Source: a phage
DNA: 64,000 nucleotides
NCBI GenBank assembly: GCA_016390365.1
Contig: GCA_016390365.1_3043.1
Strand: one strand, 5' to 3'
Positions 35 through 63,862 of the stretch are shown piece by piece. The position numbers were made by a program, and so were the translations under genes. How positions within the stretch are numbered: the first letter of the stretch is position 1; each line of letters starts with the position of its first letter. Below the pieces are notes generated by a model. The model saw nothing but the letters and a program-made list of their open reading frames with translations, ran no database searches and was not told where the DNA came from.

Positions 35-295
35 ATGCTTCTGTGGTATATCATTAGTCTTCCTGCGTCATCATTCGTATTTTACTTCTTTGGAAAAAAT
101 CCAATGGACAGAATAGGAGATTGGGCTCTTTGTACTATATTTGTTAATATTTTTACTGCAGCAATATTATCCGGAATATGGTGTGTGTTCATTGAAATGC
201 CATGGCGGTTACGCAGACAACAAAAGATTTTTGATGAAAAGAAATATGCTCAAAATTTAAATAACTTTATCACTGAATGCAGGAAATTAAAATGA
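35..295 (+). CDS. hypothetical small membrane protein upstream of nudE
   Basis: 86-codon ORF with hydrophobic segments; overlaps nudE start; function unknown. Confidence 0.4.
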   Translation: MLLWYIISLPASSFVFYFFGKNPMDRIGDWALCTIFVNIFTAAILSGIWCVFIEMPWRLRRQQKIFDEKKYAQNLNNFITECRKLK

Positions 296-732
296 AAACA
301 TTATCAGCTGGTATTATCTTTATGACAGAAGATAAAGATTTATTTATGGGTCGGGTTACTGGTTCTCGTAAGCCTGGAATGATGGCACATCGTTGGGATA
401 TTCCAAAGGGCCGCGTAGAAAATTCTGATTTAAGCGCACTAGATGCAGCACGAAGAGAATGCTTAGAAGAGACTGGTTTTAGCAATTATAATCCAGACCT
501 TCTAGAAGACCTAGGTGTATTTAAATATTCTAGTAATAAAGACTTACAGTTATTTTATTATACGATTCCAGTAGAGCATGAGATGTTCAGAAATTGCTAT
601 TGTGAGTCTTATTTTGAAAATAAAGATGGCGTTATGATTCCAGAGATGGATGCTTTTGCTCTTATTCCTCGTACTCAGTGGCAATATGTGATGGGTCCTT
701 CACTTTACCGAATAATGAACAACCTCTTTTAA
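292..732 (+). CDS. nudE: Nudix hydrolase NudE (e.1)
   Basis: Nudix box GRVENSDLSALDAARRECLEETG; start moved to ATG 292 with SD aggaaa; N-terminus MKTLSAGIIFMTEDKD matches recalled T4 NudE. Confidence 0.85.
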   Translation: MKTLSAGIIFMTEDKDLFMGRVTGSRKPGMMAHRWDIPKGRVENSDLSALDAARRECLEETGFSNYNPDLLEDLGVFKYSSNKDLQLFYYTIPVEHEMFRNCYCESYFENKDGVMIPEMDAFALIPRTQWQYVMGPSLYRIMNNLF

Positions 733-1263
<531 letters not shown>

Positions 1264-1264
1264 A

Positions 1265-1300
1265 GTTGTTTACTTTCTCCTAGAATTGTGATAGTATATT
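1265..1300 (+). promoter_or_regulatory. early promoter (GTTTAC -35, 17-bp spacer, TGn-extended -10) for denV
   Basis: gtttac at 1268-1273; tgtgatagtat -10 region; SD ggaggg before ATG 1323. Confidence 0.5.
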
Positions 1301-1322
1301 CACAGTTAATTGGAGGGATAAA

Positions 1323-1739
1323 ATGACTCGTATTAATTTGACTTTAGTATCTGAACTTGCTGATCAACATTTAATCGCAGAATACCGTGAATTGCCACGT
1401 GTTTTTGGTATAGTTCGTAAACACGTGGCAAATGGTAAACGGGTTAAAGATTTTAAAATATCTTCCGAGTTTATTTTAGGTTCTGGTCATGTCACGTTCT
1501 TTTACGATAAGTTAGAATTTTTGCGAAAGCGTCAATCAGACATTATAACGGAATGCTTAAAACGTGGGTTTAGTATAAAAGATACTGAAGTTCCTGACAT
1601 CAGCGATATTCCAGCAGAATGGAAAAATGATTATAACCCATGCAAATCGGCTATTAAATTGAGTCAACAACGACTCGATGAAAAAATTTTAATGAAGCCA
1701 CACTGGTATAAATACTACGGCAAAAATATTTACATTTAA
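1323..1739 (+). CDS. denV: endonuclease V, pyrimidine-dimer DNA glycosylase
   Basis: 138 aa [17 protein letters not shown]..., matches recalled T4 DenV. Confidence 0.95.
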
Positions 1740-1748
1740 AGGAAACAC

Positions 1749-2222
1749 ATGAAAACATATCAAGAATTTATCACTGAAGCAGCTATTAATTCTCAAATTA
1801 TTGCTGAATCTTTTACTGATCTTTTGAAATTTAAAAAAGGTCAAAAAATCACTGCTGTATTAGATGATGGTACAGAAGTTGAGATGGATGTACAGGGATA
1901 TAATTATGCAGTAGATGGAAAACTGTATAATAAATCTCATGCTAAATTTGATTCATTTGACGATTTTGTTAATACAGTTGAAGATGAAAAAACTCGTAGA
2001 TCCATTGCAACTGGCGACGCTAAGGTTCTTATGGCACACGGTCATGAACGTATCCGCGCCAAACAGAATAAAATGGGCGAAGATAATTTTGCATTAGTTG
2101 GTTATCAATCTGGTAAACAAACTTATGGTTATCAGCGTACTGCTACCATGTATAATAAAAATGGTAAAATCGCTTTCGTGAATAGCAAAGGCTCTATTCA
2201 GTACGTCAAATCATTCAAATAA
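1749..2222 (+). CDS. internal head protein, IPII/IPIII-like, with capsid targeting sequence
   Basis: N-terminus MKTYQEFITEA matches the T4 internal-protein CTS (MKTYQEFIAE, cleaved after E by prohead protease); body differs from T4 IPs. Confidence 0.7.
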   Translation: MKTYQEFITEAAINSQIIAESFTDLLKFKKGQKITAVLDDGTEVEMDVQGYNYAVDGKLYNKSHAKFDSFDDFVNTVEDEKTRRSIATGDAKVLMAHGHERIRAKQNKMGEDNFALVGYQSGKQTYGYQRTATMYNKNGKIAFVNSKGSIQYVKSFK

Positions 2223-2375
2223 GCAAATAAGAAATATGGGAACAACCTGGACCTCATGATTCTATGAGGGATTCCCGCCAACCTGTAATAAGGTCGAGCC
2301 CAAGTGCGGTAATGGGTAAATACAGAAATGGACAATTCATGCGCCACGGAATGGCCCAAATTTAGAGAGAATAAA

Positions 2376-2915
2376 ATGAGAACATTTTTAACTGGCCCGT
2401 ATCTATCCCTGATGAATGCTTTTACACACCATTCTGATGCTAGAGTAGAAGAAATTTGTAAAAACGAATATATCCCGCCATTTGAAGAATTACTTAAACA
2501 GTACTGTACACTTCGACTAGATGGTGGACGTCAATCTGGTAAATCAACTGCGGTAACTAATTTTGCCGCTAATTGGTTGTATGATGGCGGAACAGTTATT
2601 GTTCTTTCTAATACTTCAGCTTACGCTAAAATTTCTGCAGGCCACATTAAAAAAGAATTTTCTCGTTATTCTAGTAATGATATTCGATTCCGCTTATTTA
2701 CTGATTCTGTCCGTAGTTTTATCGGTAATAAAGGAAGCAAGTTCAGAGGTTTATCTCTTTCGCGAATTTTGTATATAATCGATGAGCCTGTTAAATCTCC
2801 TGATATGGATAAAATTTACGATATTCATATTGAAACTGTGCAACACTGCTGTAATAGTAAATGTTGCATTGGTGGTATTACTCGTCCGCAGTTTTTCGTA
2901 ATCGGAATGCAATGA
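2376..2915 (+). CDS. hypothetical protein with P-loop-like motif
   Basis: Walker A-like GGRQSGKST and hhhhDE (ILYIIDE); start placed at ATG 2376 after SD gagaga. Confidence 0.5.
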   Translation: MRTFLTGPYLSLMNAFTHHSDARVEEICKNEYIPPFEELLKQYCTLRLDGGRQSGKSTAVTNFAANWLYDGGTVIVLSNTSAYAKISAGHIKKEFSRYSSNDIRFRLFTDSVRSFIGNKGSKFRGLSLSRILYIIDEPVKSPDMDKIYDIHIETVQHCCNSKCCIGGITRPQFFVIGMQ

Positions 2916-3241
2916 TGACAGACACACAGCTTTTCGAATATCTTTATTTTTCGCCAAAAACTATTAAAAATAAATTGGTGAATCATTTTGAAATTTTGGC
3001 AAATAACAACGTCTTGAGCGAATTTTATCCTAAGCAATACAAATTACAAAAAGGTGTATTCAAAGGATGCAGAGTTTTGTGTACTGCTCCTAATGCAAGA
3101 TTAATGAATAAAATTCCATATTTTACCATGGAATTTATTGATGGACCTTTTAAAGGACTAATCACCCAAAGTTTAATGGCATATGATTCTGAGCCATTTT
3201 TAATTAAAGAACAATCTTGGATAAATTTATTTTCTAATTGA
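2912..3241 (+). CDS. hypothetical protein
   Basis: ORF starting MMTDTQLFEY; ATGATG overlaps upstream stop codon. Confidence 0.45.
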   Translation: MMTDTQLFEYLYFSPKTIKNKLVNHFEILANNNVLSEFYPKQYKLQKGVFKGCRVLCTAPNARLMNKIPYFTMEFIDGPFKGLITQSLMAYDSEPFLIKEQSWINLFSN

Positions 3242-3247
3242 GGTTAT

Positions 3248-3610
3248 ATGAAAGCATATCAAATTCTTGAAGGCACACATAAAGGTACTATTTATTTTGA
3301 AGATGGTATTCAAGCACGAATTATTGTTTCTAAAACCTTTAAAGAGGACTCTTTTGTAGACCCAGAAATTTTCTACGGTTTGCATGCCCGTGAAATTGAA
3401 ATTGAGCCACAGCCTACAGTTAAAATTGAAGGTGGTCAACACCTGAACGTTAACGTTCTGCGTCGTGAAACTTTGGAAGATGCAGTTAAGCATCCGGAAA
3501 AATATCCGCAGCTGACCATCCGTGTATCAGGTTATGCAGTTCGTTTTAACTCTCTGACTCCGGAACAGCAGCGCGACGTTATCGCTCGTACCTTTACTGA
3601 GAGTCTGTAA
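3248..3610 (+). CDS. autonomous glycyl radical cofactor, GrcA/YfiD-like
   Basis: C-terminal [29 protein letters not shown] glycyl-radical motif; 3' half GC-rich with E. coli-like codons. Confidence 0.8.
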
Positions 3611-3831
3611 TGGCAAAGATAATTATTGAAGGTTCTAAAGATGTGCTAAATGCTTTCGCAGAATGGTTTAGTAATTCAGGCGAACAGCAATTTAATGAAG
3701 CGTGGAATATGGGTGATATTAGTGGAATTTATCCTACGACAGAAATTTCTGTTCAGGGATATGGCATTCATGAACCTATTCGTTTAGTTGAATATGATTT
3801 GGGAACGGGCGAGGAAGTCAAATATGATTGA
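3610..3831 (+). CDS. hypothetical protein
   Basis: 73-codon ORF, TAATG coupling to upstream gene. Confidence 0.5.
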   Translation: MAKIIIEGSKDVLNAFAEWFSNSGEQQFNEAWNMGDISGIYPTTEISVQGYGIHEPIRLVEYDLGTGEEVKYD

Positions 3832-4090
3832 AGATATTAAAGGTTATAAGCCTCACACTGAAGAGAAAATCGATAAAGTGAATGCTATCAAAGACGCTGA
3901 AGTTCGTTTAGGACTTATCTTTGACGCTTTATATGATGAATTCTGGGAAGCACTAGATAATTGTGAAGACTACGAATTCGCAAAGAATTATGCTGAAAGC
4001 CTAGATCAGTTAACTATTGCTAAAACGAAACTCAAAGAAGCTAGTATGTGGGCTTGTCGTGCTGTGTTCCAACCAGAGGAAAAATATTAA
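3824..4090 (+). CDS. hypothetical small helical protein at the T4 vs.4 position (candidate Acb2-like)
   Basis: start ATG 3824 after SD gaggaag; syntenic position two ORFs upstream of regB; identity to Acb2 not verifiable from memory. Confidence 0.5.
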
Positions 4091-4368
4091 TGGCTCAATT
4101 AAGCGCAGGGTTTGGTTATGAGTATTATACTGCCCCTCGTCGTGTATCTATTGCTTCTAAGAAAATTCAAAGTCTTGATGATTTCCAGGAAGTAGTCCGT
4201 AAAGCTTTCCAGGACTATGCACGTTATCTTAAAGAAGATTCACAGGACTGTCTCGAAGAAGATGAAATTGCTTACTATGAGCAGCGTCTTGAACAGCTTA
4301 AAAACTTACATGAGGTTCGTGCAGAAGTTTCAAAGTCTATGAATAAATTGATTAGATTTAAAGAATAA
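4090..4368 (+). CDS. hypothetical protein (vs.3 position)
   Basis: 92-codon ORF starting [18 protein letters not shown] coupling. Confidence 0.5.
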
Positions 4369-4375
4369 CTGTTTA

Positions 4376-4412
4376 CTTTTCCTCTTGACTGTGGTATAAT
4401 TTTTCTATCAGT
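4376..4412 (+). promoter_or_regulatory. early promoter for regB
   Basis: gtttac 4381-4386, 17-bp spacer, tgtggtataat. Confidence 0.6.
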
Positions 4413-4427
4413 TAAGAGGAGAATAAC

Positions 4428-4889
4428 ATGACTATCAATACAGAAGTTTTTATCCGTCGAAATAAGCTTCGTCGTCACTTTGAGTCGGAGTTTCGTCAAA
4501 TTAACAATGAGATTCGTGAGGCATCAAAAGCAGCAGGAGTCTCATCGTTTCATCTAAAATATTCTCAGCATCTTCTTGATCGTGCAATTCAACGGGAGAT
4601 TGATGAGACATATGTTTTTGAATTATTCCATAAAATAAAAGACCATGTTTTAGAAGTTAATGAATTCCTGAGTATGCCTCCGCGTCCTGACATTGACGAG
4701 GATTTTATTGATGGGGTTGAATATCGTCCTGGACGTTTAGAAATCACAGATGGAAATCTTTGGCTTGGATTTACAGTTTGTAAGCCTAATGAGAAGTTCA
4801 AAAACCCGTCACTTCAATGCAGGATGGCAATTATCAACAGTCGTCGTTTACCAGGAAAGGCTTCTAAAGCAGTAATTAAAACTCAATGA
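4428..4889 (+). CDS. regB: RegB sequence-specific endoribonuclease
   Basis: 153 aa MTINTEVFIRRNKLRRHFESEFRQINNEIRE, matches recalled T4 RegB. Confidence 0.95.
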   Translation: MTINTEVFIRRNKLRRHFESEFRQINNEIREASKAAGVSSFHLKYSQHLLDRAIQREIDETYVFELFHKIKDHVLEVNEFLSMPPRPDIDEDFIDGVEYRPGRLEITDGNLWLGFTVCKPNEKFKNPSLQCRMAIINSRRLPGKASKAVIKTQ

Positions 4890-4896
4890 GGTAAAC

Positions 4897-5442
4897 ATGA
4901 GAAAAGCACTACTCGCTGGTCTATTGGCCATTTCAATGATGGCACATAGCTCCGAGCATACTTTCAGTAATGTCCAACTCGATAACATGCGTTACGCGTA
5001 TCAATTCGGGGAACAATTTTCTAAGGATGGAAAATATAAAACACACAAAAATATCCACAAGAGCGGATTAGGTCATATAATGGCTGCCATTTTATGGCAA
5101 GAAAGCTCTGGCGGAGTTAATTTAAAATCTAAACCAAAGCATCACGCCTACGGAATGTTCCAAAATTATTTGCCTACTATGCGAGCAAGAGTTAAGGAAC
5201 TTGGTTATAATATGACCGATGCTGAAATAAAAAGAATGTTGAATAAACGGTCCAATTCAGCTTCCTGGGCGTACATTGAACTTTCTTATTGGTTAAATAT
5301 ACATAAGGGCGATATAAGAAAAGCAATATCCTCTTATAATTCGGGATGGAATGTTAAAGCAGGTTCTAAATATGCTTCTGAAGTCCTAGAAAAGGCTAAT
5401 TACCTTAAAAATAATAAACTTTTGGAAATAGTAAATGACTAA
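4897..5442 (+). CDS. secreted lytic-transglycosylase-domain protein (vs.1 position)
   Basis: signal peptide MRKALLAGLLAISMMAHS; SLT-like motifs WQESSGG, YGMFQ, SYNSG. Confidence 0.6.
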   Translation: MRKALLAGLLAISMMAHSSEHTFSNVQLDNMRYAYQFGEQFSKDGKYKTHKNIHKSGLGHIMAAILWQESSGGVNLKSKPKHHAYGMFQNYLPTMRARVKELGYNMTDAEIKRMLNKRSNSASWAYIELSYWLNIHKGDIRKAISSYNSGWNVKAGSKYASEVLEKANYLKNNKLLEIVND

Positions 5443-61684: not shown

Positions 61685-63862
61685 ATGATTATCACCACTG
61701 AAAAAGAAACAATTCTTGGTAATGGTTCTAAATCAAAAGCATTTAGCATCACAGCATCTCCTAAAGTATTTAAAATTCTATCATCTGATTTGTATACAAA
61801 CAAGATTCGCGCAGTAGTCCGTGAATTGATTACTAACATGATTGATGCCCATGCTCTCAATGGAAATCCTGAAAAATTTATCATACAAGTTCCAGGACGT
61901 TTAGACCCACGATTTGTTTGTCGAGATTTTGGTCCGGGTATGAGTGATTTTGATATTCAAGGTGATGATAATTCTCCTGGTCTGTATAATTCATACTTCA
62001 GTTCATCTAAGGCTGAATCTAACGATTTCATTGGCGGATTTGGTTTAGGTTCTAAATCTCCGTTTAGTTATACTGATACGTTTAGTATTACTTCGTATCA
62101 TAAAGGTGAAATTCGTGGTTATGTAGCTTACATGGATGGTGATGGTCCACAGATTAAACCTACATTCGTAAAAGAAATGGGTCCAAATGATAAAACTGGT
62201 ATTGAAATCGTAGTTCCAGTTGAAGAAAAAGACTTTAGAAACTTTGCTTATGAAGTTTCTTATATCATGCGACCATTCAAAGATTTGGCTATCATTAATG
62301 GTCTTGACCGCGAAATTGATTATTTTCCTGATTTTGATGACTATTACGGTGTAAATCCAGAAAGATACTGGCCAGATCGTGGTGGATTATATGCTATCTA
62401 TGGCGGTATTGTTTATCCTATCGATGGTGTTATTAGAGACCGTAACTGGCTAAGCATCCGCAATGAAGTGAATTACATTAAGTTTCCAATGGGTTCACTT
62501 GATATTGCTCCATCTCGCGAGGCTCTTTCACTGGATGATCGTACTCGTAAAAATATTATTGAACGAGTTAAAGAACTCAGTGAGAAAGCATTTAATGAAG
62601 ATGTAAAACGATTTAAAGAATCTACATCTCCTCGTCACACATATCGTGAATTGATGAAGATGGGGTATTCTGCTCGAGATTATATGATTAGTAATTCAGT
62701 CAAATTTACGACTAAAAATCTGTCATATAAGAAGATGCAAAGCATGTTTGAACCTGATAGTAAGTTATGCAACGCGGGGGTTGTGTATGAAGTAAATCTT
62801 GACCCTCGACTGAAACGAATTAAACAAAGCCATGAAACTTCGGCCGTTGCATCAAGTTATCGTCTGTTTGGTATTAATGCAACAAAAATTAATATCGTTA
62901 TTGATAATATTAAAAATCGTGTTAATATTGTCCGTGGATTAGCACGTGCGTTAGATGATAGTGAATTTAATAACACTTTGAATATTCATCACAACGAACG
63001 CCTTCTGTTTATTAATCCAGAAGTAGAATCGCAGATTGATTTGCTTCCTGATATTATGGCGATGTTTGAAAGTGATGAAGTTAACATTCATTATTTGTCA
63101 GAAATTGAAGCTTTAGTTAAAAGCTATATTCCAAAGGTAGTTAAAAGTAAAGCTCCTCGTCCTAAAGCTGCTACAGCATTTAAGTTTGAAATTAAAGACG
63201 GACGCTGGGAAAAAGAGGAATTATTTACGCTCACATCAGAAGCAGATGAAATTACTGGGTATGTAGCGTATATGCATCGTTCTGATATTTTCTCTATGGA
63301 TGGTACTACATCTCTTTGTCATCCATCTATGAATATTTTGATTCGTATGGCTAATCTTATTGGCATTAATGAATTTTATGTTATTCGTCCGCTTTTACAG
63401 AAAAAGGTAAAAGAACTCGGTCAGTGCCAATGTATTTTTGAAGCTTTGCGTGATTTATATGTAGATGCTTTTGATGATGTAGATTATGATAAGTATGTAG
63501 GTTATTCAAGTTCAGCTAAACGATATATTGATAAAATTATCAAGTATCCTGAGTTAGATTTTATGATGAAGTACTTCAGTGTAGATGAAGTTTCTGAAGA
63601 ATATACACGACTCGCTAATATGGTTAGTTCATTACAGGGTGTATATTTCAACGGTGGAAAAGATACCATCGGTCATGATATCTGGACAGTAACTAATCTT
63701 TTTGATGTATTATCAAATAATGCTTCAAAAAACAGTGATAAAATGGTTGCTGAGTTTACCAAGAAATTCCGTATTGTTTCCGACTTCATCGGATATCGCA
63801 ACTCTTTAAGTGATGATGAAGTTTCTCAAATCGCTAAAACTATGAAGGCCCTTGCGGCCTAA
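61685..63862 (+). CDS. rIIA: rIIA protein
   Basis: 725 aa [32 protein letters not shown], near-identical to recalled T4 rIIA. Confidence 0.97.

Follow-up and report, generated by a model that had tools for sequence, protein, structure and literature searches.

What does the small open reading frame (ORF) upstream of regB encode in a T4-like phage whose DNA was analysed here over a stretch of 64,000 nucleotides (the window)? The original prediction, made from gene order, placed this 88-aa ORF in the slot of T4 vs.4 and stated that vs.4 had been identified as Acb2, a sponge that sequesters the cyclic nucleotide signals of CBASS immunity. The family name Acb2 reportedly comes from Huiting et al. 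2023. Two questions follow: whether the ORF is the counterpart of vs.4 in sequence as well as in position, and whether the protein would behave as the T4 sponge does.

Gene order around the ORF

The window belongs to a Tequatrovirus, and several T4-like coliphages match its first 24 kb at ~96% identity. In the 2 kb surrounding the ORF, identity is 98-99% with Yersinia phages PYps32T and PYps47T and with Escherichia phage BW-1. The genes and junctions of the region are listed here in window coordinates.

277..732: nudE/e.1
769..1263: e lysozyme
1323..1739: denV
1749..2222: internal virion protein, 157 aa (phrog_3155, E = 6e-102)
2376..2915: vs.8; this start is favoured over an extended one at ATG 2328 by the BW-1 annotation and phrog_1488
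2912..3241: vs.7
3248..3610: vs.6, GrcA-like glycyl-radical protein (Pfam Gly_radical, E = 2.8e-18)
3610..3831: vs.5, 73 aa (phrog_1986, full-length match)
3811..3817, + strand: Shine-Dalgarno-like GAGGAAG, read from the sequence, with a 6-nt spacer to the ATG; T4 has the same bases
3824..4090, + strand: acb2/vs.4 coding sequence, 88 codons plus TAA stop (7UQ2 match, PF24729, identical protein in 8 phages)
3824..3831, + strand: 8-nt overlap of the vs.5 end and the acb2 start (ATGATTGA); phage BW-1 is annotated likewise
4088..4092, + strand: TAATG junction, a 1-base overlap of the acb2 stop and the vs.3 ATG; T4 vs.4/vs.3 have the same 1-nt overlap
4090..4368: vs.3, 92 aa (unlabelled PHROG; sub-threshold Tex_N match)
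4428..4889: regB (Pfam REGB_T4, E = 6e-69)

The order vs.8, vs.7, vs.6, vs.5, vs.4, vs.3, regB is also that of the T4 reference, whose vs.4 spans 63078-63344 and is 88 codons long as well. The synteny on which the original prediction relied thus holds for the vs.4 slot and for the single ORF (vs.3) before regB, but the ORFs between the internal protein (IP) gene and the candidate number four (vs.8, vs.7, vs.6 and vs.5) and not five. Its placing of the IP gene next to denV is likewise correct for the window but not for T4 itself, in which ipII and ipIII lie across denV, on the other side. The T4 genes denV and vs.8 are just 26 nt apart, whereas an IP gene stands between them in the window, and the IP locus is therefore placed differently in the window lineage. 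The ~150 nt that separate the IP gene from vs.8 (2223..2375) have a G+C content of 44%, above the 34.5% of the window as a whole; this segment gave no Rfam match, and nothing in the T4 denV-vs.8 junction corresponds to it.

Several neighbours of the ORF merit a remark of their own. The vs.6 homologue, two genes upstream, is, like GrcA, a spare part for pyruvate formate-lyase. The vs.3 homologue, which is translationally coupled to acb2, is called 'putative endoribonuclease' in one GenBank record, a label for which no support was seen. In the T4 reference (NC_000866; L002 6882..7058), vs.5 carries a 1-nt deletion ~50 nt into the gene (TTCGC-GAG versus TTCGCAGAA), which results in an annotated Vs.5 of 59 aa and a 36-nt gap before vs.4, where the window has 73 aa and the 8-nt overlap. 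Compared with the family, the T4 reference copy of vs.5 looks as if it were frameshifted or mis-sequenced.

Start site, junctions and transcription

The predicted ORF is present at exactly 3824..4090 on the + strand; the ORF list and translation give an ATG at 3824, a TAA at 4088-4090, a length of 267 nt and a product of 88 aa. A TTG-started alternative in the mechanical ORF list (3788..4090, 100 aa) was rejected in favour of ATG 3824 on the position of the ribosome-binding site and on the T4 and BW-1 annotations. ATG 3824 is taken as the true start because GAGGAAG lies 6 nt upstream of it and because it aligns with residue 1 of T4 Vs.4. The overlaps on both sides of acb2 are the tight packing typical of a T4 early-gene cluster, and the 8-nt overlap with vs.5 suggests translational coupling inside a single early transcript.

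A promoter and terminator scan of 1200..5200 returned a site count no higher than that of shuffled sequence. The only convincing site in this interval lies just upstream of regB, at 4372..4400: a strong sigma-70-like promoter with TTTACT, a 17-nt spacer and TATAAT preceded by TG, overlapping a TTGACT motif. It is probably a T4-type early promoter for regB. As no other convincing promoter was seen in the interval, acb2 would be read from a more distant promoter upstream, probably on a polycistronic early transcript. An Rfam scan of 1700..4500 yielded one sub-threshold snoRNA-like chance match and nothing else.

Identity with T4 Vs.4

Alignment to T4 Acb2, which the original prediction had proposed as a check, gave a clear answer. 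In a search of all PDB chains, the window protein matched T4 Vs.4 (7UQ2 chain A, from the cGAMP-bound hexamer) over its full length, with 86 of 88 residues identical (97.7%; E = 9.9e-55). The next PDB matches were the PaMx33 Acb2 structures 8H2J and 8IXZ, which were weaker yet significant (E ~0.004). The protein also matched Pfam PF24729 (Acb2_Tad1_hairpin; Acb2/Tad1, hairpin domain) at 72.3 bits (E = 3.7e-20), against a cut-off of 27 bits, and fell into phrog_717, a PHROGs family without a functional label. The match to the chain named 'Vs.4', together with the Pfam assignment, bears out the identification with vs.4. The statement that vs.4 is Acb2 also proved accurate, as the literature equates the two and describes a cGAMP sponge (PMC10097602, PMC12657218).

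Only two substitutions, G17D and C50Y, separate the window protein from T4 Vs.4. At the codon level, the gene differs from the T4 reference at 16 codons, of which 14 are synonymous and two non-synonymous; this ratio argues that the acb2 frame is under purifying selection. The same pattern, together with a crystallised protein that is 98% identical, rules out a chance reading frame. Judged from its sequence, the ORF is a genuine gene and is the orthologue of T4 vs.4/acb2 (anti-CBASS protein 2) in a Tequatrovirus, a gene that is already known.

Conservation of the functional residues

Vs.4 was found by a genetic screen as the T4 antagonist of a type II CBASS (Jenson et al., Nature 2023, PMC10097602). 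The T4 protein has a Kd of ~30 nM for 3',3'-cGAMP and assembles into a hexamer with three cGAMP molecules, in which the bases stack against Y8 and F82, and Y8, H11, K23 and R79 provide hydrogen bonds or salt bridges to the ligand (PMC10097602). Mutation of L29, A66, A73 or A77 abolished both the hexamer and binding, F33A destabilised the hexamer, and T12I, S74N and A77I were recovered as inactivating alleles in the screen (PMC10097602).

All 13 residues of Jenson et al. are kept in the window protein (Y8, H11, T12, K23, L29, F33, L60, A66, A73, S74, A77, R79 and F82). Those of the dinucleotide pocket (Y8, F82, K23, H11, R79 and S74) stand at the same positions as in T4, and the hexamer-interface residues L29, F33, A66, A73 and A77, kept at the sequence level, are nearly invariant among homologues. 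In an alignment of 40 distinct protein sequences, drawn from 45 related IMG/VR loci, Y8, H11 and K23 are invariant (40/40). S74, A77, R79 and F82 show no variation in the 38 homologues that reach these columns, the other two being the frameshifted L045 and L046. Of the 40, 38 have A66 and 37 have A73.

The two substituted positions behave differently from the invariant pocket. Among the 40 homologues, position 17 is occupied by G, E, D, T, S or N, and position 50 by E, Q, K, Y, C, G, A, D, N or H. Because both positions vary freely, G17D and C50Y occupy the sites of the protein that tolerate change best. In the HMMER alignment, moreover, residue 17 is aligned with an aspartate of PaMx33 Acb2.

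In L045 (~2501..2778) and L046 (~2501..2772), both T4-like IMG/VR contigs, the acb2 frame shifts mid-gene, so that the C-terminal half with R79 and F82 is out of frame. These frameshifts could be natural loss-of-function alleles, of the kind that the Panoptes guard system selects in the laboratory, or sequencing errors.

Ligand class

Cao et al. reported that PaMx33 Acb2 binds dinucleotides through Y11 and K26, and has a second pocket, with R67 and T74, for trinucleotides (PMC10312549). T4-Acb2, with D61 and T68 at these positions, binds the dinucleotide spectrum; it binds neither cA3 nor cAAG, and the D61R mutant does not do so either (PMC10312549). The window protein has D61 with T68, as T4 Acb2 does, and lacks the Arg of the PaMx33-type trinucleotide pocket (R67 + T74). 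It would therefore belong to the dinucleotide-only T4 type, for which binding of cA3 is not expected; membership of the trinucleotide-binding (PaMx33/JBD67 dual-pocket) subgroup was rejected, as D61 is not Arg.

Sullivan et al. observed that T4 Acb2 also binds 2',3'-c-di-AMP, with a Kd of ~62 nM, and that T4 owes its sensitivity to the Panoptes guard system (OptSE) to this binding (PMC12657218). Phages that escape Panoptes carry loss-of-function mutations in acb2, F82C among them (PMC12657218). Elsewhere in the family, ten Acb2 homologues inhibit type I Thoeris (PMC12393519), and some Acb2 homologues bind 3'cADPR. The one Thoeris-inhibiting homologue with a solved structure, Acb2_43, differs in its pocket residues and has additional beta strands at both the N and the C terminus, pocket elements that bind 3'cADPR (PMC12393519).

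Predicted structure

Structure prediction, likewise suggested at the outset, gave a helical-hairpin monomer whose best Foldseek match in the PDB is 7UQ2. The single-sequence AF2 model has helices at residues 13-45 and 50-81, disordered termini, no beta strands and a mean pLDDT of 78.5. The protomer fold of this monomer model consists of two long antiparallel helices (a helical hairpin) of ~90 aa, as in the Acb2 family. Foldseek ranked the 7UQ2 chains first (E = 1.6e-10), followed by Acb2 of 8H2X/8H2J. Superposition of the monomer model on 7UQ2 was moderate (TM 0.57, rmsd 5 A), as expected for a single-sequence model and for termini that are ordered only in the ligand-bound hexamer.

Proposed function

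It is proposed, with high confidence, that the gene encodes a functional Acb2 of the T4 type: an early-expressed, hexameric sponge for cyclic dinucleotides (CDNs) that blocks CBASS, binds no trinucleotides and is a target of Panoptes. None of the observations made here directly contradicts this account. Hexamer formation, ligand binding and the effects in vivo are extrapolated from the T4 experiments, on the strength of 98% identity to the crystallised hexamer. In this scheme, six copies of the 88-aa two-helix hairpin would assemble into a hexamer with three pockets at the dimer interfaces, each lined by Y8 and H11 of the N-terminal segment, by K23, and by the C-terminal residues R79 and F82. 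Every pocket would take up one CDN, either 3',3'-cGAMP or another. The signal made by the host CD-NTase would thus be held, undegraded, leaving CBASS effectors such as CapV inactive and allowing the phage to replicate. Binding of the decoy 2',3'-c-di-AMP would also make the phage sensitive to Panoptes (OptSE).

Alternative explanations

The two substitutions relative to T4 Vs.4 are both non-conservative: G17D falls between T12 and K23, close to where helix 1 begins, and C50Y at the start of helix 2. As homologues of the sponge family differ in specificity (PMC12393519), a D17/Y50 allele could belong to the same family and still have a shifted ligand spectrum, functionally unlike T4 Acb2, such as a weaker affinity for 2',3'-c-di-AMP (the Panoptes decoy) or another CDN preference. 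This is very unlikely. Positions 17 and 50 are absent from the residues that contact cGAMP or build the hexamer (PMC10097602), they vary freely among homologues whose pocket residues are invariant, and PaMx33 Acb2, a proven cGAMP binder, also has an aspartate in the residue-17 column. It is just as unlikely that D17/Y50, an allele that this phage shares with at least eight others, is adaptive and alters ligand preference, for example by lowering affinity for 2',3'-c-di-AMP with 3',3'-cGAMP binding kept; were it so, the phage would retain its anti-CBASS sponge without triggering the Panoptes guard.

Panoptes readily selects loss-of-function acb2 alleles (PMC12657218), and frameshifted copies occur in the two IMG/VR contigs described above. 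The window ORF might, by analogy, be a decaying or unexpressed relic that is functionless now. Its full-length intact frame, good ribosome-binding site and coupling to both neighbours speak against this, as do the purifying selection evident in the 14:2 ratio of synonymous to non-synonymous changes relative to T4 and the retention of every functional residue; decay is exceedingly improbable. The shared Pfam name (Acb2/Tad1 hairpin) and the ten Acb2 homologues that act against type I Thoeris (PMC12393519) raise the further thought of a Tad1-like Thoeris sponge for gcADPR or 3'cADPR in place of a CBASS sponge. The probability of this is next to nil, and both residues and fold led to its rejection: the protein shares 98% of its residues with T4 Vs.4, whose cGAMP binding is shown, it keeps the Y8/F82 base-stacking pocket, and it has no predicted strands, unlike Acb2_43 with its beta-strand elements (PMC12393519). 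No PDB chain named Tad1 was found at E <= 1 in the sequence search, and there was none among the listed Foldseek matches.

Distribution and annotation

Homologues of the T4-type sponge proposed here were found by tblastn in 1,233 of 50,697 phage records, mostly of Escherichia, Klebsiella, Shigella and Enterobacter phages. The identical protein is present in eight GenBank phages (PBM-1, Ec_YwIITB1, PYps32T, PYps47T, phage 107, BW-1, D5505 and vB_Eco_ZCEC15), and a further 218 records fall in the 95-99% identity band. Nearly all of the records listed, including all eight with the identical protein, carry the label 'hypothetical protein'; one among those listed is labelled 'anti-CBASS protein 2'.

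The locus holds nothing new: it is a characterised T4 gene with identical copies in public genomes, and it raises no fresh biological question. Its value is one of annotation only, and the label should be acb2 (anti-CBASS protein 2, cyclic-dinucleotide sponge). An anti-CBASS label predicts resistance to CBASS systems that signal through cGAMP or other CDNs, and sensitivity to guards of the Panoptes type. Such a prediction is of use when T4-like phages are selected for therapy or for host-range studies.

Comparison with known systems

The closest known system is T4 Vs.4 itself (NP_049728; 7UQ2), which has the same 88-aa length and occupies the same slot, vs.5 - vs.4 - vs.3, upstream of regB. 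The two proteins have in common the cGAMP-contact residues, the hexamer residues and D61/T68, and the two differences, G17D and C50Y, lie at positions that vary in nature.

PaMx33 Acb2 (p26; 8H2J, 8H2X and 8IXZ) shares the helical-hairpin fold and belongs to the same family of hexameric sponges. Its Y11 and K26 correspond to Y8 and K23 in the dinucleotide pocket of the window protein, and both proteins have D in the residue-17 column. Identity between them is ~24%, however, and PaMx33 Acb2 differs in also binding cyclic trinucleotides (R67, T74).

Tad1 (Thoeris anti-defence 1) has the hairpin domain PF24729 and the sequestration of immune signals in common with the window protein. Acb1, the product of T4 gene 57B, shares its target, the cyclic oligonucleotide signals of CBASS, and T4 carries both Acb1 and Acb2 (PMC10312549). 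The two are otherwise unrelated: Acb1 is an enzyme that cleaves these signals, whereas Acb2 binds them without degradation.
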